Shown here in pieces: positions 2,424 to 36,581 of a stretch of 39,289 bases of DNA. Numbering within the stretch: position 1 is the stretch's first letter; every line of letters begins with the position of its first letter. Under the pieces are notes generated by a model. That model did no database searches. It was not told the DNA's origin and worked only from the letters and a program-made list of their open reading frames with translations. Origin of the DNA: a virus; IMG/VR virus record IMGVR_UViG_3300037067_022543; one strand, written 5' to 3'. Both the position numbers and the translations under genes were made by a program.

Positions 2424-2431
2424 AAGTCGTC

Positions 2432-4130: not shown

Positions 4131-4475
4131 TTAACCATCACGCCATGCTTCTTCATAAGTACCTAGTTCGACACTCTCCCCTAAAATTTGTTCTATTTGT
4201 TTTTTTACATCCTCTTTAAATTCTTTACCTGTTTGATTATCCTTAACATCGCTCCATGAACGTCCCAAATAATATGTGTCTCCATATGGAACATGAAATG
4301 AAAGATTGAGTTTTTGCTTTGAAATTAATTCTTCGACTAGTTCATAAATACCACAATCTTCATCATAGTAGTTATTTTTTTTTAACTTTTCTATAATGTC
4401 ATCATCCAATATTGCCCCAAAAATCAAAAATGACGACGAACTCGAATTGGAAACGAAACCTTCTCTAATTTTCAT
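4131..4475 (-). CDS. member 3 of MKIREGFVSNSSSSSF-family (114 aa)
   Basis: N-term MKIREGFVSNSSSSSFLIFGA; AGGAG RBS. Confidence 0.8.
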   Translation of the reverse strand: MKIREGFVSNSSSSSFLIFGAILDDDIIEKLKKNNYYDEDCGIYELVEELISKQKLNLSFHVPYGDTYYLGRSWSDVKDNQTGKEFKEDVKKQIEQILGESVELGTYEEAWRDG

Positions 4476-8786: not shown

Positions 8787-9161
8787 TCATTCAAATATTT
8801 CTATGCCCTTAATCTCGCTAATTTTACCATTATACAAAAGCTGTTCTTGCACTTCTCCTTCTGAAGAAATATTTCCGACTAGAATAATCTTGCCTTGATT
8901 AATTGCTTTTTTCATCCTGCTATAATTTTTTTTCAAATATTCATCTTCTTTTAAGATTTTATCTATTTCTTCATTTTGTTTTAAACCATAATTACACTTA
9001 AAATAAAAATTTAGTTCATCTATTGTTTTTATATATTCTCTGGCATAACTGTCTAAATCTATTTCTAAAGAAAGTGTTACTTTTGTTTCTTTCTTGTTAT
9101 TAATTATTGCAAAAAAACTAGAACTGCTAGAGTTACTCACAAATCCGTTTCTAATTTTCAT
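8787..9161 (-). CDS. member 4 of MKIREGFVSNSSSSSF-family (124 aa)
   Basis: N-term MKIRNGFVSNSSSSSFFAIIN; AAAGGAA RBS. Confidence 0.8.
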   Translation of the reverse strand: MKIRNGFVSNSSSSSFFAIINNKKETKVTLSLEIDLDSYAREYIKTIDELNFYFKCNYGLKQNEEIDKILKEDEYLKKNYSRMKKAINQGKIILVGNISSEGEVQEQLLYNGKISEIKGIEIFE

Positions 9162-9896: not shown

Positions 9897-10265
9897 TTAC
9901 AATTTCTGTCCTCTACACTCTATTGCTTCCCATTTAAAACTTTTTGATTCTCCGCCATCTCTCAAAATGTAATCGTAAACATTACCTATTAAAGTGCCGT
10001 CTTCATCACCGAAAGACATATAATTATCACCAACCGATATGTTATACTTATTATATGTATTTTTTAAATTTTTAGCAGACTTTATTAAATTAGCATGTGT
10101 ATAACTAGCATCTTGTTTATACCAGTCATATCTATCTAAAAACTTTTCTATCAAATCCTTGTTTTCCTTAACAAAATCAACAATTGTCAATTTTTTATTG
10201 GTTTTGTTTGTAATAATAAAACTAGTTGAGCTAGAATTAGAAACAAAGTTTTCTCTAATTTTCAT
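9897..10265 (-). CDS. member 5 of MKIREGFVSNSSSSSF-family (122 aa)
   Basis: N-term MKIRENFVSNSSSTSFIITNK. Confidence 0.75.
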   Translation of the reverse strand: MKIRENFVSNSSSTSFIITNKTNKKLTIVDFVKENKDLIEKFLDRYDWYKQDASYTHANLIKSAKNLKNTYNKYNISVGDNYMSFGDEDGTLIGNVYDYILRDGGESKSFKWEAIECRGQKL

Positions 10266-10519: not shown

Positions 10520-11629
10520 TTATACATCAAACGCAGGACATTTTCTACATCCAGAACATTTGTCTTTACTATTCAAGAGATTATTTCTCCATTGAACAAC
10601 TTTATCAGAAAACCACAAGTCTTTGAAAAAATCAAAACCATCTTTGGTCAAATCAATCCCATCTTGCCAATCTCCATAAAGACCGCAACTTCCTTCTGTA
10701 AAAGAGCATGGGTAGAATTTTCCTTCAACATTAATATATGAACTAAACAATCCACTTTCACAAGGCTCACTTCTAGTTAAAAATTCATTATAATATTTAT
10801 GCCCTTTAACAGAATTCAAAAACTTTGGAGCAGAACAGCTATCCATACCAAAACTAATATTATGTTCCAAGCAAAAATTAACTAAATATTTAAATTTATA
10901 TTCACTTAATGGAGTATATTTTTCTCCACGACCTTTTTTCTTTAAAGACAAAAGCACTATAGCATTCAACCCTTTTAAACGACTATCTGTAAGAATATCA
11001 TTAAGCGTTTCCTTACAGTCTTCAAAAGTTTGTTCTGATATCATGAAATGCATGTTTATTTGCTTCATGCCTAGATCGGTTAATCTTTTGATAGAATCAT
11101 AACAAACATTCTTATCTGCGTAACGAGACACTGCAACAGCACCAGCTATTTCTGAAAGCTTTTTAGCAGTATCATCAGAAATATTAGCAACAGTAATATT
11201 TGGAACAATTCCCTTACTTCTTGCATATTTCATCATATCAAATATTTCTGGATTAGATTGGCATTCGCTATCAGCCCCCAAAGCTATTTGTGTCAAAAAC
11301 AAAGGATATCTGTCTATAACTTTCTTAAACGTTTCCAAGCTCATATTTTTACCATTAGGAGTATTTGATTTGTAACAAAAAGAGCACGGTCTTTTAACTC
11401 CATTTTTATCAGGAATGCCATTACAAATAGTAGTAACTTCAATATCAAGTATTTCTGGAGCTGGGGCAAAATCAGGATCATCTTTTTCTGTTTTTCCACA
11501 TCTCTCAAAACGGCCACTTATCTTATTGAAGTTATAATTATAGTTTTCTGATCTAACCTTTTTCATAAAAGGATAATCATAAACAGTAAATTTAGATCCA
11601 TCAATAAAATTATATGTCTGTGTTTTCAT
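10520..11629 (-). CDS. radical SAM enzyme with C-terminal SPASM/twitch-like Cys cluster
   Basis: TTICNG-x9-RPCSFCY (Cx12Cx2C variant of CxxxCxxC), LGADSE (GGE-like), C-terminal C..C..CSGCRKCP. ORF-track start 11650 is TTG; first ATG at 11629. Confidence 0.6.
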   Translation of the reverse strand: MKTQTYNFIDGSKFTVYDYPFMKKVRSENYNYNFNKISGRFERCGKTEKDDPDFAPAPEILDIEVTTICNGIPDKNGVKRPCSFCYKSNTPNGKNMSLETFKKVIDRYPLFLTQIALGADSECQSNPEIFDMMKYARSKGIVPNITVANISDDTAKKLSEIAGAVAVSRYADKNVCYDSIKRLTDLGMKQINMHFMISEQTFEDCKETLNDILTDSRLKGLNAIVLLSLKKKGRGEKYTPLSEYKFKYLVNFCLEHNISFGMDSCSAPKFLNSVKGHKYYNEFLTRSEPCESGLFSSYINVEGKFYPCSFTEGSCGLYGDWQDGIDLTKDGFDFFKDLWFSDKVVQWRNNLLNSKDKCSGCRKCPAFDV

Positions 11630-11653
11630 AATTGTATATAAAATAATCAATAC

Positions 11654-12412
11654 TTAGTGATGACTAACGGTTATATGCGGTAGACTTTTAAATATGTCTC
11701 CATGTTCCATTGTACAGTAAAATTCTCCGTCATTATCGCTATACTCAAAAATACATATATGCCTACCTTTATTATCATCCATAAACTTTTTAGCGTCAAT
11801 ATTTGAAAGTTTCTTTCTTAAAGAATATTGTTTTTTCCAAATTTTGTTTTGTTCGTTAAAATATTTTGTTTTGAAATCTTTATATTCTTTATTTGTGTTA
11901 CGCCATTTGTTATACTTTTCATACCATTCATCTTGTTCTTTTTTAGAAAGTTCAGAATGGTTTTTGGGGCGTCCCATTCCATATTTATTAATAATTTCTT
12001 CTTCTTTTTTCCAATGACTTTCTGATAATTCATCATATTTAACAAAAAGTTTTGCTAATTCTTCAAGAATTTCCTCATCATTACCATAATATTTATCTTT
12101 ACCAACCCATCCATATTCCAAACATCTACTAAACATATTGTTGCTATGCCTTGTGTAATAATACCTATTTGAAAGTAATTCTGCTATTTTTTCAAGAGTT
12201 GCTTCTTTGTTTTTAATATTTCTACTAATATCATCAAAAACATTTTTAACAACATCTGATGTGGCAGCTCTATTGTCATAATAATTAATATTTTTATCAA
12301 GTTCCATGTGCATCATTTTACTTAAATCTTCTATTGATTCTGGATTTTTAGGGAAGGCAACAATAAAAGAAGAACTACTAGAATTACTTACAAATCCATT
12401 TCTAATTTTCAT
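11654..12412 (-). CDS. member 6 of MKIREGFVSNSSSSSF-family (252 aa, extra C-terminal domain)
   Basis: N-term MKIRNGFVSNSSSSSFIVAFP; AAAGGAG RBS. Confidence 0.8.
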   Translation of the reverse strand: MKIRNGFVSNSSSSSFIVAFPKNPESIEDLSKMMHMELDKNINYYDNRAATSDVVKNVFDDISRNIKNKEATLEKIAELLSNRYYYTRHSNNMFSRCLEYGWVGKDKYYGNDEEILEELAKLFVKYDELSESHWKKEEEIINKYGMGRPKNHSELSKKEQDEWYEKYNKWRNTNKEYKDFKTKYFNEQNKIWKKQYSLRKKLSNIDAKKFMDDNKGRHICIFEYSDNDGEFYCTMEHGDIFKSLPHITVSHH

Positions 12413-13260
12413 TTTTTCAACTCCTTTAAAAACTTGCGAAAACTACTTTTTGTTGGTTTATTTGTTTTTCCTTCTCCGGTAGGCATATGAGTTGGAAGAT
12501 CAGGAATACCTATTATCGCATCTGGATATAACTTTTTCATTTGTTCACGAAACGACTTTCTATCTAAAGATTCATTGGATTCTGGAGTTGAATCTGCATC
12601 TATTTTATTAATTTCTTCTTCCAAAACATGACATTTATAGGACTTATTAAAAAAAACTCCATTGGCATGAACAAACTTAATTCTTTGTTTTAATTCCTTT
12701 AATTTATCTTCTCCTTTTGCTTCTGATAACCTTACGATTCTAGCTATTTTATAATCATTATCTTTTCTTTCAAATTGGACAATGTAATTAGTATCAAATG
12801 AAAAAAACATAATAATTTCTTTCAATAAATCTCCCATACCTTCATTGAAATCATTGTGCATACTAGTGAAATAAGAAAACTCAATTCCATCTTTAGAAAA
12901 CTTTGTTTTGATTCCACTGTGCTTTAAAACAAACTTAACTAATTTCCCATTTGTTGAACATTTATCAAGATCATCAAGTTCTTTTTTACAACGTAAAACA
13001 TAATCATTATTAATCTTTTGCATAAACTTAAAAGTGCTATTTTTACATTCTTTAAAATAAGTCTTACTATATTTTTTATTATCTTCTATAGCTTTTTTAA
13101 TTCTATCTTTTATTTTACGATTAATAATTCTCTTGTTAAAATAATCGAACCAATAATTAGAAACCATTAGGTTCACAAAATCATTGAACTTTAAATCATT
13201 AACTCTAAAAAAATAACTACTGGAACTAGAATTGCTTACGAAACCTTCTCTAATTTTCAT
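12409..13260 (-). CDS. member 7 of MKIREGFVSNSSSSSF-family (about 283 aa)
   Basis: ORF track starts 12 codons upstream (13296); family consensus places start at internal ATG 13258-13260 (MKIREGFVSNSSSSSYFFRVN). Confidence 0.75.
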   Translation of the reverse strand: MKIREGFVSNSSSSSYFFRVNDLKFNDFVNLMVSNYWFDYFNKRIINRKIKDRIKKAIEDNKKYSKTYFKECKNSTFKFMQKINNDYVLRCKKELDDLDKCSTNGKLVKFVLKHSGIKTKFSKDGIEFSYFTSMHNDFNEGMGDLLKEIIMFFSFDTNYIVQFERKDNDYKIARIVRLSEAKGEDKLKELKQRIKFVHANGVFFNKSYKCHVLEEEINKIDADSTPESNESLDRKSFREQMKKLYPDAIIGIPDLPTHMPTGEGKTNKPTKSSFRKFLKELKK

Positions 13261-13270
13261 ATATTCGCTT

Positions 13271-13525
13271 TCAATTAAAAATGTATTTAATAACATCTGA
13301 TTTAGACAAATGAGATCTTAAACGACCTTCTCTGTTCTTGATAAGTTTATAACGGCCATTTCTTTTTTTAAAAACAAGATCTGCTCTAGCAAAGTGATTT
13401 TCACTTGAATCAGCTTTATACCAACGGCTGGCGCCATCTTTTCCAAAATTAAGAGAATATTCGTTAACATTATTAAGATCATCACAAATTATAACAACAG
13501 TTTTAGTTTTCATTTTATTTTTCAT
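13271..13525 (-). CDS. hypothetical protein
   Basis: 84-aa ORF. Confidence 0.5.
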   Translation of the reverse strand: MKNKMKTKTVVIICDDLNNVNEYSLNFGKDGASRWYKADSSENHFARADLVFKKRNGRYKLIKNREGRLRSHLSKSDVIKYIFN

Positions 13526-17602: not shown

Positions 17603-17695
17603 TGGAAGAGAGGAAGGGATTCGAACCCTTGGGGCCCCATTACGAGGCCCAATTGTTTAGCAAACAATCCCCATAAACCGCTCGGGCACCTCTCC
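17603..17695 (-). tRNA. tRNA-Ser(GCU), class II
   Basis: acceptor GGAGAGG/CCTCTCT, anticodon stem ATTGT/ACAAT loop TTGCTAA, long variable arm, T-loop TTCGAAT, encoded CCA. Confidence 0.85.
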
Positions 17696-17743
17696 ATTAT
17701 TATGCTTTGTCAAAATCGTACTAACTTTTTTATTTTATTAAAC

Positions 17744-17837
17744 TGGCAGAAGGATAGAGATTTGAACTCTAGTGACTCGTTGAAAAGTCCTCGTGATTTC
17801 CGATCACGTGCCATAAACCAGACTCGGCCATCCTTCT
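17744..17837 (-). tRNA. tRNA-Ser(GGA), class II
   Basis: acceptor AGAAGGA/TCCTTCT, D-stem GCC/GGC, anticodon stem CGTGA/TCACG loop TCGGAAA (unusual C33), long variable arm, CCA. Confidence 0.75.
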
Positions 17838-17844
17838 ATAAACC

Positions 17845-17936
17845 TGGCAGGAAGAGAGAGATTTGAACTCCCGGGACCCCTTTCGGAGTCCTATGCTTTT
17901 CAAGAGCATCGCCATAAGCCACTCGGCCATCTTCCC
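17845..17936 (-). tRNA. tRNA-Ser(UGA), class II
   Basis: acceptor GGGAAGA/TCTTCCT, anticodon stem ATGCT/AGCAT loop CTTGAAA, long variable arm, CCA. Confidence 0.8.
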
Positions 17937-17946
17937 TCAAAATTAC

Positions 17947-18035
17947 TGGAGGAAACGAAGGGACTTGAACCCCCAACTCCGTTTATAGGAGCACTAGTTT
18001 TCGAGACTAGCAGGCTACCATTACCTCACGCTTCC
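17947..18035 (-). tRNA. tRNA-Ser(CGA), class II
   Basis: acceptor GGAAGCG/CGTTTCC, D-stem AGG/CCT, anticodon stem CTAGT/ACTAG loop CTCGAAA, 19-nt variable arm, CCA. Confidence 0.8.
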
Positions 18036-18044
18036 ACTTAAAAT

Positions 18045-18130
18045 TGGTGTCGGTGATAGGAGTTGAACCTACACGAGATTTCCTCTGCGGATTTTGAATC
18101 CGCCGCGGCTTCCAATTACGCCACACCGAC
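18045..18130 (-). tRNA. tRNA-Leu(CAA), class II
   Basis: acceptor GTCGGTG/CACCGAC, anticodon stem GCGGA/TCCGC loop TTCAAAA, long variable arm, discriminator A, CCA. Confidence 0.8.
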
Positions 18131-18133
18131 ATT

Positions 18134-18361
18134 CTAATCTTTTCCTAAAATTTTTCTTTGAACCACATCTCCATAATCTTGATAATTTGTTTTTGGAGGA
18201 TCTTTTTGTTGAGAAGAAAAATTTAATAACGGAGCATCTTCGTCCTTATCTTGTTCTTCTTCCGCTTCTTGAGATATTTCCAAATTAGTTTTACTATTAT
18301 CTACTGTCACTGGTTTCCCAACTACTCCTTTACTTCTGTCTAATCTTTTTATCGGCTTCAT
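18134..18361 (-). CDS. small hypothetical protein embedded in tRNA island
   Basis: 75 aa; TTG start with AAGGA RBS 6 nt upstream. Confidence 0.5.
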   Translation of the reverse strand: MKPIKRLDRSKGVVGKPVTVDNSKTNLEISQEAEEEQDKDEDAPLLNFSSQQKDPPKTNYQDYGDVVQRKILGKD

Positions 18362-18374
18362 ATTTTATCCTTAA

Positions 18375-18464
18375 ATGGTGCTGATGGTGGGATTTGAACC
18401 CACACGGGACATTAAGCCAGTAGTACCTCAAACTACTCCCTGCTGCCAATTCGGGTACATCAGC
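18375..18464 (-). tRNA. tRNA-Leu(GAG), class II
   Basis: acceptor GCTGATG/CATCAGC, anticodon stem GTAGT/ACTAC loop TTGAGGT, 16-nt variable arm, discriminator A, CCA. Confidence 0.8.
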
Positions 18465-18475
18465 ATTTTATTAAA

Positions 18476-19384
18476 TCATACAATGTTTTCTTTTTTCCAT
18501 TGTATTCCCATTAATCTACACCTTTTTCTAACAGCATTATCACTTATATTAAACATTTTTCCTATTGAAGTCATGGGTTTAGATTCAACTAACTTTACCA
18601 ATTCTTCTTTTGAGATATGAAATTTTCTAGACCTCTCTATAGCCATTTGTTTAGATTCGTTTATTTTACTTCTCAAATTAGGTATTAATATGTGTTCTTC
18701 TCTGCATATTCTTTTTAATATTTTATAATTTACACCAATTTCAGAACATATTCTTTTAAACGAAACATTTTTTAATCTTTCTATTAAAATCTCCCTGTTC
18801 ATCCCAAAATCAATAAGATTTACTTTTTTAGTTTCCCAACAAGCCCTGCACCTTCCAATTTTGTTATTGTTAATCTTTTTTCCACAATTAATACAAATTG
18901 ATTTATTAATACTGTTTTTACCTATTAAATTTTTTCTACCGCAATAATTTTTTGTTTGGCTATGGCAGTTAGGACATAAAAATCTTAAATTTTCTATTCT
19001 ACTGTCTCTTTTATCTCCATTAATATGATCTAATTGCAAAACAAGTTTGTCACTATTCCATATATTTATTAGTCCACATTTTTGGCATTTGTATTCTATT
19101 AATTTGTTTTTTATAACTTTTTCTCTTAAATTAGATAACGATCTATCTACGCCCTTAATAAAATACTCATTTGTTGGAATTGCATTAACAGCTATGCTAC
19201 CACGATTCCACCCTTGACCTAGAAAATGGGATGTGTCAAAACCATTTTTAATAGCAATTCTTTTTATAGTATTCATGTTGCCACCAGCTGGTCTTAAACC
19301 TATAGTTTCACAAACTTTCCTCCACGATTTGTTATTTAGTATTGCATTTTTAACATCTTCTACCGTGTAATTTTTACTTGCCAT
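18476..19384 (-). CDS. HNH homing endonuclease inserted between tRNA genes
   Basis: LQLDHINGDKRDSRIENLRFLCPNCHS HNH core plus C-terminal DNA-binding region; flanked by tRNAs on both sides. Confidence 0.75.
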   Translation of the reverse strand: MASKNYTVEDVKNAILNNKSWRKVCETIGLRPAGGNMNTIKRIAIKNGFDTSHFLGQGWNRGSIAVNAIPTNEYFIKGVDRSLSNLREKVIKNKLIEYKCQKCGLINIWNSDKLVLQLDHINGDKRDSRIENLRFLCPNCHSQTKNYCGRKNLIGKNSINKSICINCGKKINNNKIGRCRACWETKKVNLIDFGMNREILIERLKNVSFKRICSEIGVNYKILKRICREEHILIPNLRSKINESKQMAIERSRKFHISKEELVKLVESKPMTSIGKMFNISDNAVRKRCRLMGIQWKKENIV

Positions 19385-19469
19385 ATTTCATACTCCTTTA
19401 TACTTTTAATATATCATTCGTATAAATATGGCACACTTCCTTTATTTTAATTATTCTCGTATGCCAAAA

Positions 19470-19554
19470 TGGTGGGACTGATAGGATTTGAACCTACACA
19501 GATTTACATCTATTACGGTCTAAACGCAAGAGTCTGCCGTTCCGCCACAAACCC
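19470..19554 (-). tRNA. tRNA-Leu(UAG)-like, irregular (possible diverged duplicate/pseudo-tRNA)
   Basis: anticodon stem TTGCG/CGTAA loop TTTAGAC, long variable arm, T-arm GTAGG TTCAAAT CCTAT, disc A, CCA; but acceptor GGGTTTG/CAGTCCC has a T:T mismatch and the D-stem pairs poorly. Confidence 0.5.
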
Positions 19555-19587
19555 GTTATATAAACTATTTTATACTATCTAAAAAAT

Positions 19588-19671
19588 TGGTGCGGGTAGA
19601 GGGATTTGAACCCCCACTCCTTACGGAATCAGATCCTAAGTCTGACGCGGCTTCCATTACGCCATACCCGC
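19588..19671 (-). tRNA. tRNA-Leu(UAG), class II
   Basis: acceptor GCGGGTA/TACCCGC, anticodon stem TCAGA/TCTGA loop CTTAGGA, 13-nt variable arm, disc A, CCA. Confidence 0.8.
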
Positions 19672-19682
19672 ATTACTAAAAT

Positions 19683-19767
19683 TGGTGGGCAAGACGGGAC
19701 TTGAACCCGTACGGTTTTACCCTGCAGATTTTAAGTCTGCCGCGGCTTCCAATTACGCCACTCGCCC
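19683..19767 (-). tRNA. tRNA-Leu(UAA), class II
   Basis: acceptor GGGCGAG/CTTGCCC, anticodon stem GCAGA/TCTGC loop CTTAAAA, long variable arm, disc A, CCA. Confidence 0.8.
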
Positions 19768-22115: not shown

Positions 22116-22616
22116 TTATTTATAAGCGTCAATCATTAGCTTTTTAACTTCATCCATAACTTCTTTCATCCTTTTGGTCATAGACGGCTTAAAAGGCTTT
22201 CTCAAAGGAAACATATTAGCTTCTGCTGGAGTTCTGTTGTTTTTCTTTTTGTTACAATAAGAACAAGCGGTAGTCATATTTTCATACGTAGTTTTACCAC
22301 CTCGTGATTTTGGAAGAACATGATCTGTGGTCAAATCATTTTTATCAGTGATATGCTTTCCACAATATTGACAAATATAATCATCTCTTTCCCAGGTCAA
22401 TTTATTAGAATATTTCATTTTTCTATTATATGCTCTAACAAATCTAAATATTTTAATAATTAATGGGACTTGAATGATTTCAGAAACCGTATGAATAACA
22501 TCCTCTGCATATTTTACAACTTCTGCTTTTTTTTGTTCTATTAATGATAATGCTCTATTAAGAGAGCAAGAACTAATACATTCATAACCGCTATTTAAAA
22601 CATATACTCTATGCAT
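22116..22616 (-). CDS. HNH endonuclease (McrA-like)
   Basis: CQYCGKH...TTDHVLPKSRGG...NMTTACSYCNKKK; AAAGGT RBS. Confidence 0.75.
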   Translation of the reverse strand: MHRVYVLNSGYECISSCSLNRALSLIEQKKAEVVKYAEDVIHTVSEIIQVPLIIKIFRFVRAYNRKMKYSNKLTWERDDYICQYCGKHITDKNDLTTDHVLPKSRGGKTTYENMTTACSYCNKKKNNRTPAEANMFPLRKPFKPSMTKRMKEVMDEVKKLMIDAYK

Positions 22617-22820
22617 AACCTGTTTTACCTTTATATAAAAAAAATACCATTAGTCAAACCACCAAAAATGGCAAATAAGATCCTGTTGGAAATTATATGC
22701 CTGCAATGCAAGACCCGGATGTATACTGGTCATGCAGCAAACCATCTTTTTGTGTTTTAACTAACGGCAATATCGCATTCATCTTATTATACCTAATTTT
22801 TACATTTTTCCCTTTTAAAT

Positions 22821-23188
22821 TGGTGGACCCGGAGGGATTTGAACCCTCGTCTTGATAAATTTCAAAAATGGCATCTACATGTTTATATGATTTTACTATT
22901 TTAGGCAAACCATCAAGCCCACCAGAATCCTTTCTTCTGGTTAGTCAGCAAACGTCTTTCCGTTTCGCATTTGTCAGGGGTCTTATCTTCACCCATTGAA
23001 CTCTAGTGATCGTCACTACTCTAGGCTACCAGAGATATCTTGCCTATTTCGCGGACAGCTGGTTAAGCAGCCATCAAATAAGAAGCTTTGTCAGCTCTTA
23101 ATGTTTTTAGTGGATTCTTTACGGTGCCAACCACTATCACCTACATGCATCCATAATCTCTTCTTATCAATCGAAACCGGTCGGGCCC
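22821..23188 (-). ncRNA. ssrA: tmRNA (transfer-messenger RNA), tag reading frame ADKASYLMAA-stop
   Basis: 5' GGGCCCGACCGGTTTCGA...; 3' GGGTTCAAATCCCTCCGGGTCCACCA; acceptor GGGCCCG/CGGGTCC with G3:U70; PK1-like GGTTGGC..CGTAAA; frame GCT GAC AAA GCT TCT TAT TTG ATG GCT GCT TAA (cf. E. coli ANDENYALAA). Confidence 0.85.
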
Positions 23189-23429: not shown

Positions 23430-23717
23430 TTATTCTTTAATAAAAGTTTCCAATCCTTTTTCAAAAATCTTTTTAAAAACATAAACTCCCATTTGTTTAT
23501 TATCAAAACCTTCTGTTTCTAGAGAATCTATTATTTCACTAAAAGCTATTTTTATTGCTTTAATATGCTTTTCATCTGACAACTCTACTCTTTGTGCTAA
23601 AATTGTCAAGCTTTTAAATTCTAATTGTTGATCATATCTAACAGCGTCTATAATAGCATCCATTTTTTCTACATTTAATTCTAAATATGCACCATCTTTT
23701 CCAATTTCTATGCTCAT
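23430..23717 (-). CDS. hypothetical protein
   Basis: 95-aa ORF. Confidence 0.55.
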   Translation of the reverse strand: MSIEIGKDGAYLELNVEKMDAIIDAVRYDQQLEFKSLTILAQRVELSDEKHIKAIKIAFSEIIDSLETEGFDNKQMGVYVFKKIFEKGLETFIKE

Positions 23718-23947: not shown

Positions 23948-24718
23948 TTATTTCTCCTTGTTTCCAAATAGATTAGGGGGCATATTGTTAGCTATTCTAT
24001 TTTCTGATATTTTATGATATTCTTTTGATATTTCAGAACCAACATAATTTCTATTATTATTTAAGCAAGAAATTGCAGTAGTTCCTCCACCCATAAAAGG
24101 ATCGTAAACTAAGTCTCCTTCATATGAAAGTAATTTAATACACATATCTGGCAAATCTGTATGAAAATTTGCTTTTGTAATTTCTTGACTTTGAGTTCTT
24201 AATTTCCATATTCCGCTACATCCCATCATAAATTCGTCTTTAGAAATCTTGCTATTGCCTTCTTTAATCTTTTTCCATACATCTTTATATCCTACCATAA
24301 CAATCTCATAAGGATTATAAATATATGGAGATGATGGCTTCAACCAAGAACCCCATGCAGTATACTTAACTCTATGAGAATCAACCCAAACTGGAGAACC
24401 AAATATATTTATTCCAACTTTATTAAACAAATTATAAAACTCAGCATAAGGAGAAATTCTTTTTTTATTATATTCTATGCCCATTTCCAATAATATATTA
24501 AGGCATATTCTACCATCAGATTTTAGAACTCTTTTTATTTCTTTCAACCATTTTTCACACCAAGACAAATAATCTGACCAATCTTTATTATCATTATAAA
24601 TATCATATTTAATGCCACAATTATATGGAGGGCTTGTTACTACTAAATCTACAAAGTCATCAGGCATCTTTGACAAAGTAAGTAAACAGTCTTCGTTATA
24701 AATTTTATTAATTTCCAT
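23948..24718 (-). CDS. DNA methyltransferase (amino-MTase, beta-class: N4-C or N6-A)
   Basis: motif IV SPPY near N-term, motif I DPFMGGGTT near C-term. Confidence 0.8.
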   Translation of the reverse strand: MEINKIYNEDCLLTLSKMPDDFVDLVVTSPPYNCGIKYDIYNDNKDWSDYLSWCEKWLKEIKRVLKSDGRICLNILLEMGIEYNKKRISPYAEFYNLFNKVGINIFGSPVWVDSHRVKYTAWGSWLKPSSPYIYNPYEIVMVGYKDVWKKIKEGNSKISKDEFMMGCSGIWKLRTQSQEITKANFHTDLPDMCIKLLSYEGDLVYDPFMGGGTTAISCLNNNRNYVGSEISKEYHKISENRIANNMPPNLFGNKEK

Positions 24719-25226: not shown

Positions 25227-26927
25227 CTATTTTTCTATAACTTCAACACCAACAACATCTAATTGCATCCCCCATTTTTCATCATAACTTTGTGGGAATT
25301 TAAAGTAAACATTTGCTCTTTTGCCAAATTCTTTAAGGGAGCCAATCTCATCATTAAATGTTTTAAACTTAAAATTAATCCCATCAACCTTCAATATAGA
25401 TAATATCCAGTTCGGGTTTTCTTTTCTATCAACTAAAGAAACCGCTACTTCTGAAAGCTTAAAAATTGGCTCTGGATTGTTAATATCACAATATGGATAT
25501 AATAAGTTAACAATTTTATAAGTATCTTCACTAATTGATGATGGCTTCAAAACAGCGTCATAAAAAACTTCTTTGTTACAATTTTTATTTTCTTCTACAA
25601 GCACTTTTTGACAAGCATCATTAAATATTTTTCTTGATTTGTCAAGATATTTTTTCTTTAACGTAACACCTGCTGCATAATCATGCCCGCCATATTTATC
25701 AAACATCTCTGAACATAAATCCAATATTTTAATTAAGCTAATGCCTTTTATAGATCTTCCACTTCCTTTTAAAATTCCTTTTTCTCTACCTATTACCACT
25801 GTTGGTTTATGAAACTTTTCGGCTATTTCAGAAGCAACAACTCCTACAACTCCTATGTTCCATTTAGGATTAACCAGTAAAATACCATATTCCATTTCTT
25901 TTTCATTAAACATACCTATTGCTTCTTCTAATATATTTCCTTGTATTTCTTGTCTATTTTTATTTGTAATCTCAAGAACTTGTATAATATCATCAATCTC
26001 ATCTTTATTTTTAGACACAAGTAAATCAAAAGCTTCTTGAGGAGATCCTAATCTGCCGACAGCATTTAATCTTGGAGCTAATCTAAAACCAACCTGTTCT
26101 TGAGTAATTGTTTTATTATTTAATTTACATAACTCTATTAAAGTTGACAATCCTTTAGAAGACAATTTATTAAAAAATTTCAGCCCTTGTTTAACAATAA
26201 TTCTGTTATCTTTAATAATAGGAGAAACATCTGCAATTGTTCCTATTGCAGCCAAAGATAATAATTCCTGAAGATTATCCTGTGTTATATTGCCATAAGT
26301 CGAGAACATCTCTAATGCTATTAAATAAACTAATCCACAAGTACACATTTCTTGAGAATCATACATTCTCCAATTAACTACTGAATTGGCTGATCTAGAA
26401 AAGTTTTCATCATTAAAAATATGATGATCGATCACGGCTATTTTTTCTATTCCAAAAGATTTCAATTTCTTTATTTCTTTTTCAGATGAAGATCCGCAAT
26501 CAAGTATTAATAATAGATCCGGAGTTTTGTTTTCAAGAGTAAATGCTATAAAAGATGCTAATGTTTGGGCATTTAATCCGTATCCATGCTCAAATCTAGA
26601 TGGAAGAAAAACATTACATTCTATGTTTAATATGTCACAAATCCTTCTTATCATATAAGAAGAAATTATACCATCAGTGTCATAATCACCTATGCAAGCA
26701 ACACTCTTTTTATCCGTACATATACCCATTAGTAGGTTAGAAATGTCTTTTATATTTTTAATTAATGATAGGTTTTTAAGATGCAAATAAGTGTCTTGGT
26801 GCGGATTTAGAAAGCCATCAACATCATCTATTTGCCTTTGAGACAATAACCTAGATAATAGTGGATTCATGCCGCCAATTTTCATTGATTTTTCTAATTC
26901 ATAATTATGCTGTCTTACGCAATACAT
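25227..26927 (-). CDS. recJ: RecJ-like DHH-family single-strand DNA exonuclease
   Basis: VACIGDYDTDGIISS (DxDGxxS), AVIDHHIF (DHH), GGHDYAAG (DHHA1 GGH); GGAGGAG RBS. Confidence 0.85.
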   Translation of the reverse strand: MYCVRQHNYELEKSMKIGGMNPLLSRLLSQRQIDDVDGFLNPHQDTYLHLKNLSLIKNIKDISNLLMGICTDKKSVACIGDYDTDGIISSYMIRRICDILNIECNVFLPSRFEHGYGLNAQTLASFIAFTLENKTPDLLLILDCGSSSEKEIKKLKSFGIEKIAVIDHHIFNDENFSRSANSVVNWRMYDSQEMCTCGLVYLIALEMFSTYGNITQDNLQELLSLAAIGTIADVSPIIKDNRIIVKQGLKFFNKLSSKGLSTLIELCKLNNKTITQEQVGFRLAPRLNAVGRLGSPQEAFDLLVSKNKDEIDDIIQVLEITNKNRQEIQGNILEEAIGMFNEKEMEYGILLVNPKWNIGVVGVVASEIAEKFHKPTVVIGREKGILKGSGRSIKGISLIKILDLCSEMFDKYGGHDYAAGVTLKKKYLDKSRKIFNDACQKVLVEENKNCNKEVFYDAVLKPSSISEDTYKIVNLLYPYCDINNPEPIFKLSEVAVSLVDRKENPNWILSILKVDGINFKFKTFNDEIGSLKEFGKRANVYFKFPQSYDEKWGMQLDVVGVEVIEK

Positions 26928-27763: not shown

Positions 27764-27996
27764 ATAATATCCAATGTATCAGTGGTTCTGTTAGCAACAA
27801 AACCAATTTTAGAATTATACTTCACGGCTGAAAACCTATAAGCGTTTTTTATAATTTCCTGATATTCTGGAGAAAAGTCTGTTATTTTTTTAGTTCTATC
27901 TAAAAAAACTGCATTAACATCATCCCAAAGCTCAATTTTGCCAGGATCATTATTACTAGGATCAGCAGGATCATCAGGAGAAATTGGATTTGCCAT
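27760..27996 (-). CDS. hypothetical protein
   Basis: 78-aa ORF. Confidence 0.45.
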
Positions 27997-28906
27997 ATTT
28001 TTTTAGTACTCCTATAATTACTTCCCTATCTTCTTTATCTATAATTACAGGAACATCATAAAATACCCTTGCTATAAAATCAGAATTATTAAAACCCTTG
28101 TTGCTTATATGATAAAATGCCCCATTCCCCTTACGTGAATCTAATTTAATTTCAACGCTTTCTTTATCTCCAAGTATGTGATGGGTAACGACATCTTCTC
28201 TTAAAATATTAATCATTGGAATATTTAAAAGACATATTATAGAACCATCATTTTGAACTAAATGATTATCCTCTTCTACTGGATAATCTATTTGAATATA
28301 TAAATCTCCTTCAGTATTATCAAAAGACAATATGTTGCCTTTTTTTTCTATTTTTATAAAAGATCTTTTTTTAATTCTTGGTGGTATATCAACAGATAAA
28401 GACTCTTTACTGAAAATAGTTTTAATTCCATATTTTAAATTATTGTCTTTTTTATAAATTTCTCTTTTATAAGAAATAGTCTTCTTGCATCCACAATATG
28501 CATCTTTTAAAGATATATTTAATCCTATTTTTATATCTTTTTGGATAGGATCTCTTGTCCCAAAACCCCCTCTACCAAAGTTAATAGTAAAACCACCAAA
28601 GTTTATCCCATTTCCATCAGAAGACGGTTTTCCAAAATCTGCCCAAAAAGATTCCGAAAAAGACTCATTAAAATCCATAAAATTTCTATCAAAAGGAGAT
28701 GGGTTATCATATCTTTTTCTTTTAGATTCATCTGATAAAACTTCGTAAGCTTCATTAATCTCCTTGAATTTATTTTCGTTTTCTTTTGTATTATTAACAT
28801 CAGGATGGTATTTAAAAGCTTTTTTTCTAAAAGCCTTCTTTATTTCTTCTTGAGTTGCTTTTTTATCTACATCAAGAATTTTATAATAATTTTTTGTTGT
28901 TTTCAT
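27974..28906 (-). CDS. J-domain (DnaJ-like) co-chaperone
   Basis: [32 protein letters not shown] (HPD), Gly/Phe-rich region [17 protein letters not shown]; no CxxCxGxG zinc finger. Confidence 0.8.
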
Positions 28907-28944: not shown

Positions 28945-31260
28945 TTAGGTTCTAACAACTATATTACCTTCTTGTAATATTAAGTCAATACTTTTAACAT
29001 TGCCTTTTTGTTTAACAATATAATCTGAAATAATATCAGATATAAAACTTTTTGTAACAACATCTTCTATAGGATTTGCATTAATTCCATGTGATTTTTT
29101 TACTTCTTCTAAAACTCTTGGAATAATGTTTGTATTGTATGACAAATCTATATTTTTTTGTTTCTTTATTTTAGTAATAAGTTTATCAAACATTAACTTA
29201 ATAAGGTCTTCTTTTTCATTATCCGTGAAGTTATTAAAGGTAACTATAGAATTAATCCTATTAACAAACTCTGTTCCAAAAGATTTATTATACATGGAAA
29301 CAATTTTATCTTTTGTTATTCCATTATCTTTATTAATTGATCCAAAACCCAATGAACCTTGCGTGGATATTTCGCTACCCATATTAGTAGTCATTATTAT
29401 TATGGATTGGTGAAAGCTAACAGATCTTCCTTTAGAATCTGTTAATGTACCCCTAGATAAAACTTGCATAAATAATTTAATAACATCTGGATGGGCCTTG
29501 TCTATTTCATCTAGTAAAATTAAACAATATGGTCTTCTTAAAACCCTGTCAGTAAGTTGATTTTTTTCACCAAAACCGACATAACCCGGAGGACTACCTA
29601 TTAGCCTAGAAATTGTATGAGATTCTGCAAATTCAGTCATGTTTATTCTAATAAAGGCATCATTATGTGGAAATATTGATTCTGATATTTTTTCTGCCAA
29701 ATATGTTTTTCCGGTTCCAGATGGGCCTGAAAAAATAAAACTACAAATAGGAGTATCTAAAGAACGAAGTCCTATATAGGCATTTTTAATTATTTTACAT
29801 ACTGTTTTTAATGGTAATTCTTGACCGACAAAATCCTTTCTTATAATTTCTTCCAAATTTAATATCTTATCAGTATATGAATTTACAATAGCATTATATG
29901 GAATATTTTGTTGTTCAGATATAATTTTAGATATGTGCTCTCTCTCAATTATAATATTGTCTTTGTTGCCTTTTTTAATATTAGCAAATCTAGCGCAGGC
30001 ATCGTCTATTAAATCTATTGACTTGTCTGGAAAATATTTGTCTTTAATATAATGATCTGCTAAATCTGCTGAAGCATCAATAGCATCATTGCTAATAATA
30101 CACTTATGATGCTTTTCCATTGAATCTTTAATTCCATATAATATTTTTTTAGTATCTTCTATTGATGGCTCATTAATAACCACCTTTTGAAATCTTCTTT
30201 CTAATGCACTATCCCTAGAAATAAATTTATAATATTCATCTTCTGTTGTTGCTCCTATACATTTGAAATCTCCTCTTGCTAAGGCTGGCTTTAATATATT
30301 ACCTGCGTCCAATGTTCCAATAGCTCCACCTGCACCTAAAACAGTATGCATCTCGTCAATAAAACACACATATTCTTTTGATTCTTTAAATATTTGGAGA
30401 ATATTATTCATTTTTTCTTCAAATTGTCCGCGATATTGAGTATCTGCAACAACTGAAGAAAGATTCAGCATTAATATCTTTTTGTCTTTTATGGATTCTG
30501 GGACAACACCAGCAGCTATTCTCTGTGCAAGACCTTCTATTATACATGTTTTTCCAACACCTGCATTTCCCACTAATACTGGATTATTTTTTCTTTTTCT
30601 ACACAAAATAGAAACTATTTGTTCTATCTCATTTTCCCTACCGATAACAGGATCTAATTTTCCTTCAGCAGCACTTTTAGTTAAATCAACAAAGAATAAA
30701 TCTAAAATTTGTTTTTTTGTTTTTTTGTTTGCTTGTTTTTTGTTATTTCCGCTATTAGCAGAAACATCACATAGATCATCAATATCTTCTTCGTCTTCAA
30801 ATTGATCGCTAATCACAGCAACTTGGGAAAATGCTTTTTTAAAATCTTTTTTATTAATTTTAACTAAATCATCAAAATATGCAGAAGAACACAATGCAAG
30901 CAAAACATGTTGAACTCCTAAAACCTTGTCTTCAATTTCATTTTTGAATTTTATGGCACTTTTAATCAGGGTTTTGCCTTCTGGTGATATTTGAATATCT
31001 CCATAGACAAAACTATTATTAAAAGACATAGCCACTTTATTTTTTTCTATCTTTTCTTTAATTTTACATAATAACAAATCTAATTTAACTTTTAATATTT
31101 TTAAAATTTCAGTAGCCACATTTGGCCCAGATAAAATAATACCAATCATTAAAATATCTGGTGAGATTTCTTTGCATTCTAAATCAACTGCCACTGATTT
31201 AGAAAAAATAAAACTACGCAAAAGATCCGTATCAAACTTTTCATAAATTTCATTACTCAT
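28945..31260 (-). CDS. Clp/Hsp100-family double AAA+ ATPase (ClpA/ClpB-like)
   Basis: N-domain repeats, NBD1 Walker A GNAGVGKT and IDEMHTV, NBD2 FSGPSGTGKT, GSPPGYVGF signature, ILLDEIDKAHPDV; ORF-track start 31278 is TTG; first ATG at 31260. Confidence 0.85.
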   Translation of the reverse strand: MSNEIYEKFDTDLLRSFIFSKSVAVDLECKEISPDILMIGIILSGPNVATEILKILKVKLDLLLCKIKEKIEKNKVAMSFNNSFVYGDIQISPEGKTLIKSAIKFKNEIEDKVLGVQHVLLALCSSAYFDDLVKINKKDFKKAFSQVAVISDQFEDEEDIDDLCDVSANSGNNKKQANKKTKKQILDLFFVDLTKSAAEGKLDPVIGRENEIEQIVSILCRKRKNNPVLVGNAGVGKTCIIEGLAQRIAAGVVPESIKDKKILMLNLSSVVADTQYRGQFEEKMNNILQIFKESKEYVCFIDEMHTVLGAGGAIGTLDAGNILKPALARGDFKCIGATTEDEYYKFISRDSALERRFQKVVINEPSIEDTKKILYGIKDSMEKHHKCIISNDAIDASADLADHYIKDKYFPDKSIDLIDDACARFANIKKGNKDNIIIEREHISKIISEQQNIPYNAIVNSYTDKILNLEEIIRKDFVGQELPLKTVCKIIKNAYIGLRSLDTPICSFIFSGPSGTGKTYLAEKISESIFPHNDAFIRINMTEFAESHTISRLIGSPPGYVGFGEKNQLTDRVLRRPYCLILLDEIDKAHPDVIKLFMQVLSRGTLTDSKGRSVSFHQSIIIMTTNMGSEISTQGSLGFGSINKDNGITKDKIVSMYNKSFGTEFVNRINSIVTFNNFTDNEKEDLIKLMFDKLITKIKKQKNIDLSYNTNIIPRVLEEVKKSHGINANPIEDVVTKSFISDIISDYIVKQKGNVKSIDLILQEGNIVVRT

Positions 31261-31268
31261 GATTATTT

Positions 31269-31526
31269 TTATCCACAAAAATCATCTTTATCATCTTGTT
31301 CTTCTTTAAAATTAAGATAATTGACCATCTCTTTTATCTCTTTGTTCTCCATCATCTTTTCATCTTCTGGTATTTCTTGAGAAAAAGCAAATACAGAAAT
31401 AACAAGATTTTTTTCTTCATCTGTCATGTCTGGATATCTGGCAAAAATCATCTGATCATTATGTCTTCTGCCAAACAGCACTCTTCCTCTTTCGTCACAA
31501 ATATGCCACCTAAAACCTTCTTGCAT
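31269..31526 (-). CDS. hypothetical protein
   Basis: 85 aa, AAAGGA RBS. Confidence 0.5.
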   Translation of the reverse strand: MQEGFRWHICDERGRVLFGRRHNDQMIFARYPDMTDEEKNLVISVFAFSQEIPEDEKMMENKEIKEMVNYLNFKEEQDDKDDFCG

Positions 31527-34922: not shown

Positions 34923-36581
34923 CTAATTATTTTCTCCAAATGAAAAATCATCACCATTGTATTCATTATTTACATCATTATTATCATTGTCTTCATGTAA
35001 TAAATTGTTTTCTGTTTCTGGAATTATAACATCAGATTCTTTTACATCAAGCAAGTTTTTTTCTTCTTCAGCTTTTTTAATCTCAATCTTTTTGGCGTCT
35101 TCATTTTCTATTTTTCCTACTATGCTTTCATATCCTTCTAATCCAGGCATGTCAGACAGCCTACCAGAGTTTGCATCAAAAGAAAGAGTATAACTATCCA
35201 AAGATCTATTAAATCTTGCCTTGGTTGATCTGAGGTATATCCTGTCTTTTGATTTTTGATCTATGGCAACTCCAAAAACATAATCTGCTGCTGCTACTAT
35301 TTTTTGAGAACCACTAACATCCCCAACACCAACATCTCCAACTGCACTAAAAGTATCTTTAGCTTTTTGCAGTTTTTTTACGCTTTCAGCCTTAAGTTGT
35401 TGAGCAGTTATAACAAGAATATCTGTTTTTTTGCCATAGGATTGAAAAACAGCAGAAACATCAGCTAATTCAAGATCTGGTCTATTGGGATAACTTTTAT
35501 CTCTGCCAACAACATCTAAATAATCTATAACTAAAACGTCAACAGTTCCAAAAGATCTTTTTCTTTCTACCATTTCTATTATTTTAGTTGCAGGAGTTCC
35601 TTGTACAACCTGTATCCATGAAAAGTTTTCTACCATATTTGTAGATAATTCTTCTTTGCCTTGCCTTAAAACTTTCATTATATCTTCATTGAGTCCATCA
35701 CTGCCGCTTCCGCCCCTTAATATTTTGTTTTCATCAATTCCGGCATATATACACAATACTCTTTGAGTTGCTCGCATATGTTCTGATTCTATTGTAACAT
35801 AAACAACATTGTTTTTGTTCATCGCCATATTCATTGCAACATTAAACATTACTGTTGTTTTTCCACCGTTAGGCATACCTGTAAAAACAAGGTACTTCCC
35901 ACGCAAAAAGCCCATAAATCTTTTATCAAGACATTTAAAGCCACTCATTAATCCATAATAGTTTTCTGGATGTTTTTGCCTATCTTCTATTTGTTCCCAA
36001 ACTTCTTTTAGGGAGTCTGTTAAAGAAACTGTTTGAGCATATTCATCATTTCCTGTCCCCTTAATAGATAAAATATCTTGAATAAAAGTTTCTACATCCT
36101 TATTACTACTAGATCTGGCTTCCAAAATAGTCTGATGATGTTTGTTTATTATATCTATAGCTTGCCTAGATAAGTTTCTGTTTTTTATTCCATTTTTTAA
36201 AGCAGAAAAATCTTCTATAGATATATCTAAATTAGCTATCTCATCATATAAACTTCTATAATAGGTTTGTTCTTCTTCTTTATAAAGTTTTGCAACTTCA
36301 TTTCTAAACTGTTCTCTGGTCAAAATAGATCTGTATTGATCGAAGTATTTAGCTATTATTTTGTATAATTCTGAAGTATCATTCCACCAAAAAAAAGAAT
36401 ACTTTATTCCAGAACTTATAGACTCTGATACAGCTTCTTTAGAATGCATTAAAATACTTATAAATGATTTTTCTTCTCTTAAGGCTATTTCTTTTGCCTT
36501 TGCATTATTTGCCATGCACCAAGGAGATTCTGCGCCATTTATTCTTTTAATATTATTTTCTTTTTTAGAATTTTGAAACAT
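34923..36581 (-). CDS. DnaB-family replicative helicase with acidic C-terminal tail
   Basis: Walker A FTGMPNGGKTT, Walker B VLVIDYLDVV, RecA-like C-domain; tail EDNDNNDVNNEYNGDDFSFGENN. Confidence 0.8.
   Translation of the reverse strand: MFQNSKKENNIKRINGAESPWCMANNAKAKEIALREEKSFISILMHSKEAVSESISSGIKYSFFWWNDTSELYKIIAKYFDQYRSILTREQFRNEVAKLYKEEEQTYYRSLYDEIANLDISIEDFSALKNGIKNRNLSRQAIDIINKHHQTILEARSSSNKDVETFIQDILSIKGTGNDEYAQTVSLTDSLKEVWEQIEDRQKHPENYYGLMSGFKCLDKRFMGFLRGKYLVFTGMPNGGKTTVMFNVAMNMAMNKNNVVYVTIESEHMRATQRVLCIYAGIDENKILRGGSGSDGLNEDIMKVLRQGKEELSTNMVENFSWIQVVQGTPATKIIEMVERKRSFGTVDVLVIDYLDVVGRDKSYPNRPDLELADVSAVFQSYGKKTDILVITAQQLKAESVKKLQKAKDTFSAVGDVGVGDVSGSQKIVAAADYVFGVAIDQKSKDRIYLRSTKARFNRSLDSYTLSFDANSGRLSDMPGLEGYESIVGKIENEDAKKIEIKKAEEEKNLLDVKESDVIIPETENNLLHEDNDNNDVNNEYNGDDFSFGENN

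Follow-up and report, generated by a model that had tools for sequence, protein, structure and literature searches.

The 39,289-nucleotide stretch of DNA in IMG/VR virus record IMGVR_UViG_3300037067_022543 (the whole of which is called "the window" here) contains a gene for transfer-messenger RNA (tmRNA, the product of ssrA), and the question that it raises is whether this gene is a working part of the phage-like element in which it lies or an ordinary bacterial ssrA. The reading favored in this study, at a probability of ca. 0.75, is that of a functional one-piece tmRNA gene carried by the genome of a large phage-like element, AT-rich and uncultivated, that was sampled from landfill leachate.

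ARAGORN located a one-piece tmRNA of 368 nucleotides (nt) on the minus strand at 22821-23188, with the coding part at gene positions 94-126. The Rfam model RF00023 spanned the same coordinates end to end (model positions 1-374 of 374; 108.3 bits, compared to a gathering score of 47 bits; E = 1.4e-41). A preliminary description of the locus, made from the sequence alone, had placed a complete tmRNA gene at exactly these positions and had suggested both programs as checks; both were positive. The strand was missing from that description. Every other gene of the window is also on the minus strand, and the tmRNA features listed below were read on the reverse complement. Comparisons were made to a lineage of related elements, described further on, that yielded six distinct tmRNA sequences, including that of the window. 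The pseudoknots (PK1 to PK4) and helix P5 are named as is customary for tmRNA.

22821..23188 (minus): complete one-piece tmRNA gene (ssrA) with encoded CCA; ARAGORN, RF00023 and covariation in six lineage sequences
23182..23188 (minus): 5' strand of the acceptor stem, GGGCCCG, partner of 22825-22831 (CGGGUCC); bears G3 of G3:U70
23108..23142 (minus): PK1, gene positions 47-81, 5' of the resume codon
23063..23095 (minus): tag reading frame (resume codon GCT, ADKASYLMAA, TAA); ARAGORN and direct reading
23054..23075 (minus): helix P5, in which the tag frame ends with its stop codon; 8 bp, 97.8% paired
23001..23053 (minus): PK2, gene positions 136-188
22941..23000 (minus): region of the expected PK3; per-sequence folds
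22887..22921 (minus): PK4, gene positions 268-302
22821..22848 (minus): T arm, 3' strand of the acceptor stem, discriminator A and CCA; Rfam posterior probability near 1

The tRNA-like domain had been credited with a G3:U70 pair, a T arm and an encoded CCA, and each of these could be read in the sequence. The acceptor stem (7 bp) was 100% paired in all six lineage sequences, with compensatory changes at three positions, and the G3:U70 alanine identity pair was G:U in 6/6. The T arm, GAGGGUUCAAAUCCCUC, reads GAGGG UUCAAAU CCCUC; its 5-bp stem was 100% paired with covariation at three pairs, and the gene ends in ACCA. The stretch GGUUGGCACCGUAAA, to which the preliminary description had pointed as PK1, was likewise present and could be aligned to the Rfam consensus. 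In the alignment of lineage sequences, stem 1 of PK1 (columns 47-51/65-69) was 80% paired and stem 2 (columns 55-60/78-83) 100% paired, with three compensated pairs in each. PK2 comprised two stems (columns 150-152/187-189 and 157-161/177-181) crossed by a third (169-172/199-202); all were 100% paired, and the stem at 157-161/177-181 covaried at 5/5 pairs. The PK4 stem at columns 290-294/305-309 was 96.7% paired with three compensated pairs, and its crossing stem (298-304/318-324) was 90.5% paired with five. PK2 and PK4 were thus supported by covariation as H-type pseudoknots.

The fold as a whole was examined using RNAalifold on the six distinct sequences; of the 72 nested pairs that it gave, compensatory changes were seen in 39. 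For counting, a model of 76 pairs was used that also included the stems crossing in PK1, PK2 and PK4, and two controls were applied: the 3' partners were slid by 1-3 columns, and 500 shuffles were performed. Standard pairs were formed in 95.6% of the cells of the model (a percentage inflated by the partial discovery of the helices on the very alignment used for counting) vs. 39-45% in the slid controls; pairs changed on both sides numbered 43 of 76 vs. 5-12; and the covariation score was 0.583 vs. 0.08-0.13. None of the 500 shuffles reached the observed values. Compensatory changes were distributed over the acceptor stem, P2, both stems of PK1, P5, the three stems of PK2, both stems of PK4 and the T stem. 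To judge from these comparisons, the tmRNA architecture, together with the end of the tag frame, is held by selection across the lineage.

The reverse complement of 23063-23095 reads GCT GAC AAA GCT TCT TAT TTG ATG GCT GCT TAA, so the predicted tag ADKASYLMAA, the GCT resume codon and the 10-codon frame ending in GCT GCT TAA were borne out by ARAGORN and by direct reading alike. The frame opens at the resume codon without a start codon, and its stop codon lies inside P5. The final codons, ATG GCN GCN TAA, were retained in 6/6 lineage sequences; one of these (L013) has the synonymous pair GCC GCC, for which its P5 helix compensates. Two forms of the tag front were seen across the lineage, A-[DEN]-K-x-x-Y-[LK]-MAA and [AD]-E-P-R-x-L-MAA, and all six tags had the MAA end with L or K at the fourth-last position. 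Because the final codons were kept through a synonymous change while the front varied, the degron-like C-terminal end of the tag is constrained and the front free. In E. coli, the determinants for ClpX are the last three residues of the tag and the carboxylate; the MAA-ended tag is probably a Clp-type degron.

The loci of the lineage were obtained by a metagenome scan with an alignment of RecJ-like relatives, supplemented with look-ups of single proteins. Relatives of the RecJ-like protein form a tight clade (60-82% identity), and in the lineage loci the RecJ proteins were 54-74% identical to that of the window, with a tmRNA downstream of RecJ in each locus. The five distinct tmRNAs from outside the window all scored above the RF00023 threshold (84.6-141.2 bits), and ARAGORN predicted the following tags.

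L008 and L163 (identical tmRNA): AEPRRLMAA
L010: DEPRQLMAA
L011: AEKATYKMAA
L013: ANKSAYLMAA
L042: ADKATYKMAA

Wherever a contig reached far enough, the local order was the same: a gene for a 95-residue protein, the tmRNA, a spacer with a long hairpin and U-run, and a gene for a 166-residue HNH protein. In L010, 14 genes were colinear with those of the window, at 53-88% protein identity. The preliminary description had taken the gene to be carried by the element rather than to mark a chromosomal att site, and the full-length gene, the uniform one-strand AT-rich flanks and the synteny in five relatives all agree with that view. In five other lineage sequences the tmRNA has diverged in step with the genes on either side of it, a behavior that host ssrA beside an att site would not show. 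By this comparison the gene is inherited as part of the element; it is no host ssrA left where a prophage integrated.

No tmRNA was found beside RecJ in RecJ loci at 26-41% identity, nor in two jumbo-phage helicase loci; an exact search of IMG/VR with the 31-nt 3' end of the tmRNA gave no match, and neither did the single RecJ protein vs. IMG/VR. Within the lineage, CCA is encoded in the window and in 4/5 of the other sequences. The tmRNA of L042 (8172-8190) has no encoded CCA, the discriminator A being followed directly by seven T, and CCA would therefore need to be added post-transcriptionally. Mobile elements of the IS200/IS605 type were observed in two loci: in L013, a TnpB gene (OrfB_IS605 and Cas12f1-like TNB; 1855-3219, minus) is inserted between the 95-residue-protein gene and the tmRNA, and in L163 a pair consisting of a Y1 transposase and TnpB (42-1513, minus) lies upstream.

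All credible open reading frames (ORFs) of the window lie on the minus strand, and the GC content is 24-35% throughout (29% overall). The genes flanking the tmRNA, described earlier as HNH and methyltransferase genes, were identified by Pfam as such.

17603..19767 (minus): array of nine tRNA genes; ARAGORN and Rfam tRNA matches
22116..22616 (minus): HNH endonuclease, downstream of the tmRNA; Pfam HNH and HNH_5, phrog_16726
23430..23717 (minus): gene for a 95-residue helical protein, upstream of the tmRNA on the same strand
23948-24718 (minus): N6/N4 DNA methylase; Pfam
25227-26927 (minus): RecJ-like DHH exonuclease; Pfam
27974-28906 (minus): DnaJ homologue; Pfam, conserved in the lineage
28945..31278 (minus): ClpC-type AAA+ unfoldase with LGF loop; Pfam AAA_2 and AAA_lid_9, conserved in the lineage
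34923-36581 (minus): DnaB-type helicase; Pfam

Further Pfam matches were obtained for two more DNA methylases, a DnaG zinc-ribbon protein, an SPFH protein, a phosphoribosyltransferase, DUF4419 and DUF6899; the remaining proteins were mostly without a Pfam match. The HNH gene downstream of the tmRNA has copies that are 65-77% identical in L013 and L010, and it is also present in L042 and L163. ARAGORN counted ten RNA genes in the window (the tmRNA and nine tRNAs). The tRNA array encodes only Ser (GCU, GGA, UGA, CGA) and Leu (CAA, GAG, UAG twice, UAA) tRNAs, i.e. type II tRNAs with a long variable arm, and is broken by a gene for a 302-residue HNH-like protein (18476-19384; Pfam HNH).

Sequence matching the window was also present in other assemblies. 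ENA contig ERZ27247363 k141_2785280 (46,098 bp; the "46 kb" referred to below, window included) is 99.9% identical to the window and ca. 3.4 kb longer on each side, the extensions carrying an SNF2-type helicase, a D12 methylase, HNH-like genes and small ORFs. Short contigs from SRR8542065 and from IMG sample 3300029288 were 100% identical over the shared bases; the latter sample derives from leachate well LW4 of a Southern Ontario landfill (10.1101/2024.05.30.596742). Since these independent ENA and Logan assemblies are 99.9-100% identical to the window, a chimeric assembly of the flanks is argued against. In protein-cluster tables, identical helicase, RecJ and 95-residue proteins were placed on a 103,289-bp JGI contig.

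Whether the element is a phage was judged from its gene content. A radical-SAM/SPASM-type protein (10520-11650, minus) matched phrog_7293 (E = 4e-117), and a tblastn search of GenBank phages with it returned 173 records, essentially all of them T4-like phages of enterobacteria at ca. 48% identity; the matching proteins carry radical-SAM annotations. These relatives (RB16, Cronobacter phage leB, and Klebsiella and Enterobacter phages) are striking for an element of 29% GC from a landfill. The DnaB-type helicase had no relative of more than 28% identity outside its own clade. In IMG/VR, five genes of the element were colinear with L169 (UViG_3300027844_001828; 235,624 bp), in the same order: the SNF2 helicase (E = 2.5e-104), the DnaB-like helicase (5e-62), the primase zinc ribbon (4e-28), a 296-residue protein (1e-5) and ClpC (1.6e-115). 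A second viral contig of 255 kb (L168) had three of those five. From the PHROG matches, the T4-like radical-SAM gene, the density of methylase and HNH genes, the HNH-interrupted tRNA array, the isolated helicase and the colinearity with L169, we infer that the element is very probably a large phage. The AT-rich surroundings and the HNH and methylase genes of the preliminary description were confirmed; the phage nature of the region is deduced from the features above, no virion gene having been seen in the sequences read. No similarity to GenBank phages was found for the tmRNA DNA by blastn in distant mode or for the helicase by tblastn, and the lineage is therefore a separate one.

Two further features of the window deserve mention. 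The gene at 2432-3391 (minus) encodes a divergent homologue of thymidylate synthase (Pfam E of only 2.8e-7, phrog_160), which could instead act as a deoxynucleotide hydroxymethylase; taken with the three N6/N4 methylases, the D12 methylase beyond the end of the window and the phosphoribosyltransferase, it hints at modified DNA. There is also a family of seven paralogues, encoding proteins of 110-295 residues that start with MKIR(E/N)GF(V/I)SNSSS(S/T)S(F/Y) and then diverge in length and sequence; none of the seven had a Pfam match, and the five that were scanned with PHROGs all matched phrog_7397 (function unknown).

3369-3701, 3739-4113, 4131-4475, 8787-9161, 9897-10265, 11654-12412 and 12409-13296 (all minus): the seven paralogues

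Conservation across the lineage alignment extended to the spacer (22617-22820) that separates the tmRNA from the HNH gene. In the window it contains a hairpin with a 21-bp closing stem and two inner hairpins, followed directly by a U-run (minimum free energy of -45.6 kcal/mol, z = -3.6). Of its 41 pairs, nine had compensatory changes in five sequences. A covariance model of this hairpin matched only this spacer, in every lineage locus; L013, which had been left out of model building, was still matched (36 bits, E = 2.5e-5). The L013 version is an unbranched 88-nt hairpin followed by U9, beginning 9 nt past the CCA (z = -5.4). The copies are ca. 90-130 nt in length, and most of them are branched.

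Window 22636..22769 (minus): long branched hairpin, then U-run, between the tmRNA and the HNH gene; alignment and folding
L010 13380-13506: hairpin copy
L042 8249-8376: hairpin copy
L008 4044-4168: hairpin copy
L163 7085-7209: hairpin copy
L011 2570-2693: hairpin copy
L013 3763-3862: hairpin copy

Rfam, searched at a permissive E-value, returned no credible family for the spacer. The simplest interpretation is that transcription of the tmRNA unit ends at this hairpin, which would be an intrinsic terminator of unusual length. A box, GGTATAAT (window 22786-22793), lies between the tmRNA and the hairpin; it was conserved in 5/6 sequences, L013 being the one without it. It was considered as a recurring phage promoter, and this was rejected: the combined motif occurs once in the window, and the box is missing from L013. 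A scan for sigma-70 promoters around the tmRNA was uninformative (10 sites vs. 10.2 expected).

The preliminary description had called phage-borne tmRNA known from huge phages and uncommon. There is precedent: ssrA genes were described in eight mycobacteriophages (the Bxz1 group and Wildcat) and in Bacillus phage G, with only a tRNA-like domain (TLD) in DS6A (Hudson, Lau and Williams 2014, PMC4131195), and tmRNA and SmpB in huge phages and some large plasmids (Al-Shayeb et al. 2020, PMC7162821). These are full genes (DS6A apart) on large genomes with tRNAs and translation-related genes, as in the window; some huge phages encode SmpB, whereas none was found here within 46 kb. Phage tmRNAs being already documented, the window gene is a further example, from a separate lineage.

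The tag endings of bacterial and viral tmRNAs were compared by a pattern scan. One genome per species in GTDB was searched for ATGGCNGCNTAA followed by the T loop 200-230 nt later, with confirmation by ARAGORN, and the same pattern was applied to IMG/VR. Both samples are non-random and contain related sequences, and the figures that follow refer to the matches listed. GTDB gave at least 108 confirmed tmRNAs, many from Bacteroidota, along with Planctomycetota, Fibrobacterota, Gemmatimonadota and other phyla. The endings were AMAA (75), RMAA (16), QMAA, SMAA and PMAA, and L, K or E preceded MAA in 0/108. In IMG/VR, ARAGORN confirmed at least 81, and contigs of 100-500 kb carry many of these; their endings included AMAA (52), RMAA (11), LMAA (5), EMAA (4) and KMAA (1); L, K or E preceded MAA in 10/81. 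MAA-tagged phage-borne tmRNAs are thus common in IMG/VR, and "uncommon" was an overstatement. The earlier contrast with the canonical YALAA ending also needs qualification: the tag does end in LMAA, but an xMAA ending is not exotic, AMAA being the commonest among the bacterial matches. The trait that is particular to the lineage is the L or K at the fourth-last position, not xMAA. That L or K before MAA is a feature of viruses only is a lead suggested by these tag counts and nothing firmer.

Measured against the E. coli type of one-piece tmRNA, the window gene shares the G3:U70 pair, T arm and CCA, a PK1 before a GCN resume codon, a length of ca. 365 nt, a 10-codon frame ending in two alanines, a stop codon in P5 and pseudoknots after the frame. 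It differs in that the E. coli type ends in ALAA and the window tag in LMAA, in its location on a phage-like element with no adjacent smpB found, and in a PK3 region that is not recognizable as a pseudoknot. When the 108 bacterial matches were scored with a profile of the six lineage tmRNAs, the best full-length match (67.6 bits) was that of a Fibrobacterota metagenome-assembled genome, L060, whose tag (AEDYSYAMAA) has the same 10-residue form, A-(D/E)-x-x-S-Y-x-MAA. In L060 and the related YAMAA tmRNAs of the FCB group and others, the fourth-last residue is A, compared to L or K here, and the likeness is distant; as to the phylum of the donor or host, the comparison gives a weak lead toward Fibrobacterota- or Bacteroidota-type tmRNAs. 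The closest tmRNA outside the lineage among the matches listed was viral (79.7 bits, full length): that of L228 (UViG_3300037560_000207; 181 kb), with the tag GEARLKMAA. Two other IMG/VR loci, L257 and L295, share the tag DEPLLMAA, which has L before MAA as in the window, and have their tmRNA beside tRNA genes; the (D/A)EPxxLMAA tags of IMG/VR loci resemble those of L010 and L008. No homologue of a window protein was found in the L228 locus, and only the HNH protein (34%) in L257 and L295; all three lack the module of 95-residue-protein gene, tmRNA, hairpin and HNH gene. A PHROG scan of the L228 locus gave no structural-gene match. On L295 (922-7216), an unrelated viral contig, a tmRNA of 330 nt heads an array of 18 tRNA genes, and the arrangements in L257 and L300 are similar.

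Candidate protein partners were sought in the surroundings of the gene. The preliminary description had suggested searching the rest of the genome for smpB; the search was run on the 46 kb and on relatives and found none. Six-frame tblastn with two SmpB queries gave nothing in the window or in 12 related or comparison loci; applied to bacterial control loci, the same search gave matches down to 6e-57. The Clp protein, encoded 5.8 kb upstream of the tmRNA and adjoining the DnaJ gene, had B. subtilis ClpC as its best match among solved structures (524 bits). Its GSLGFGS segment aligned with KYVGFNV of ClpC, the ClpP-docking VGF loop of that protein. Because LGF stands at the VGF-loop position, the protein was assigned to the ClpC type and not to ClpB. 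On the 99.9% identical ENA contig, the Clp gene was called as two (352 and 412 residues), for which the single gap in its alignment to the window is a candidate cause. No clpP was seen in the window by Pfam. The tag might be read by this ClpC-type unfoldase, the sole link between the two being the genome that they share. The gene for the 95-residue protein was present in every lineage locus that reaches that far (the window, L010, L013, L042, L163 and L165). Its product was 71-100% identical within the lineage and had only 10 homologues in a search of 5.8 billion proteins. One source labels it as a "predicted component of type VI protein secretion system". Its AlphaFold model consists entirely of helices at low confidence (pLDDT of 63). 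SmpB is a beta-barrel, and the 95-residue protein was ruled out as an SmpB analogue on that difference.

Several observations weigh against a functional tmRNA on a phage. No capsid, tail, portal or terminase gene was detected with Pfam or PHROGs in the window, the 46-kb ENA contig or the relatives; translation genes of this sort also occur on some large putative plasmids (Al-Shayeb et al. 2020, PMC7162821); and Pfam detected no SmpB among the proteins of the window, its flanks and L013. The region of the expected PK3 folds as two hairpins in every lineage sequence, without a fixed pseudoknot pairing, and has low posterior probability in the Rfam alignment. The discovery of helices on the alignment that was used for counting also belongs here; the gap between the model and the slid controls is, however, too large for that bias to explain.

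The alternatives turn on what kind of replicon this is and on what the RNA does. The segment might derive from a bacterial chromosome (e.g. a reduced or candidate-phyla genome) or a megaplasmid, in which case the tmRNA would be an ordinary ssrA. Consistent with this are the cellular types of DnaB, the DnaG zinc ribbon, RecJ, ClpC, DnaJ, the thymidylate-synthase-like protein, the tRNAs and the tmRNA itself, as well as the lack of any virion gene seen and the large plasmids just cited. Yet the 46 kb contain no ribosomal, cell-envelope or central-metabolism genes, most of the proteins have no Pfam match, and methylase and HNH genes are dense; the helicase is at most 28% identical to anything outside its clade, the radical-SAM gene matches only T4-like phages within GenBank phages, the phrog_7397 paralogues belong to a phage-only family, and five genes are colinear with a 236-kb viral contig. 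Moreover, smpB was not found, though it lies within the 8-kb ssrA loci of several bacterial controls. We regard a cellular replicon as unlikely. A host ssrA, or its 3' fragment, left at a prophage junction (an attL/attR remnant) would fit the established knowledge that many prophages and islands integrate in the 3' end of ssrA. Here, however, the gene covers the full model, composition and strand are the same on both flanks for 16-22 kb, Pfam revealed no integrase in the window and the ENA flanks, and synteny and co-divergence extend to five other lineage sequences; this explanation was rejected, and its residual likelihood is negligible.

Other alternatives accept the phage and concern the role of the RNA. 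It could act as a decoy that titrates SmpB or competes with the host tmRNA, blocking trans-translation by the host. A TLD-like molecule strongly inhibits tmRNA, perhaps by titration of SmpB, and such a role was proposed for DS6A (PMC4131195); the failure to find a phage smpB nearby is compatible with it. But a decoy needs the tRNA-like domain only, and in this lineage the tag frame, PK1, P5, PK2 and PK4 are kept by compensatory change and the stop codon and MAA codons are invariant, which makes a decoy highly improbable. Alternatively, the tmRNA may work with a tag retuned by the phage, such that the L or K routes its products to the phage ClpC on host ClpP or otherwise alters their fate; quality control would then be partly private instead of a supplement to that of the host. 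The L or K in all six lineage tags, the bias in the pattern scan, and the lineage-conserved unfoldase with its LGF loop point this way. Against it, the scanned samples are non-random with related sequences in them, ClpX may still recognize in the same way a tag whose fourth-last residue differs, and the tag and ClpC are linked by a shared genome alone, with no ClpP gene seen in the window. We hold this version to be doubtful. Somewhat less probable still is its extension to a private system of trans-translation and proteolysis, in which an L/K-MAA degron would be read preferentially by the phage ClpC on host ClpP, with the 95-residue protein as an accessory factor; if that were true, the phage could clear or spare specific stalled products independently of its host.

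For the favored reading, a functional tmRNA of the phage, the following course of events may be proposed. In the window, ca. 23 nt separate the stop of an upstream ORF of 66 residues from the mature 5' end; from the stop of the gene for the 95-residue protein, the distance is 12-22 nt in L042 and L163. The RNA would be cut from a longer transcript that ends at the hairpin and U-run ca. 50 nt downstream. The alanyl-tRNA synthetase of the host would charge it with alanine through G3:U70, SmpB would bind it (assumed to be the host's, since none was found within 46 kb), and in the infected cell EF-Tu would carry it to ribosomes that have stalled on mRNAs broken or lacking a stop codon. Translation would resume at GCU, append (A)ADKASYLMAA and terminate at UAA, freeing the ribosomes for the synthesis of phage proteins, while the hydrophobic MAA-COOH end would direct the truncated product to a Clp-type protease. 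For the phage, the gain would be that free ribosomes remain in steady supply during the destruction of host mRNA and the heavy translation of an AT-rich genome with its own tRNAs. By analogy to known tmRNAs, ribosome rescue in concert with host SmpB is the likely function.

The comparative evidence shows that the RNA is under selection in this lineage and is not a recent capture in decay. It also defines a compact conserved module, consisting of the gene for a small helical protein, the tmRNA, a long hairpin that is probably a terminator, and an HNH gene. Should the viral bias toward L or K before MAA hold, it would offer a handle on whether large phages top up the ribosome rescue of their hosts or redirect the tagged proteins.

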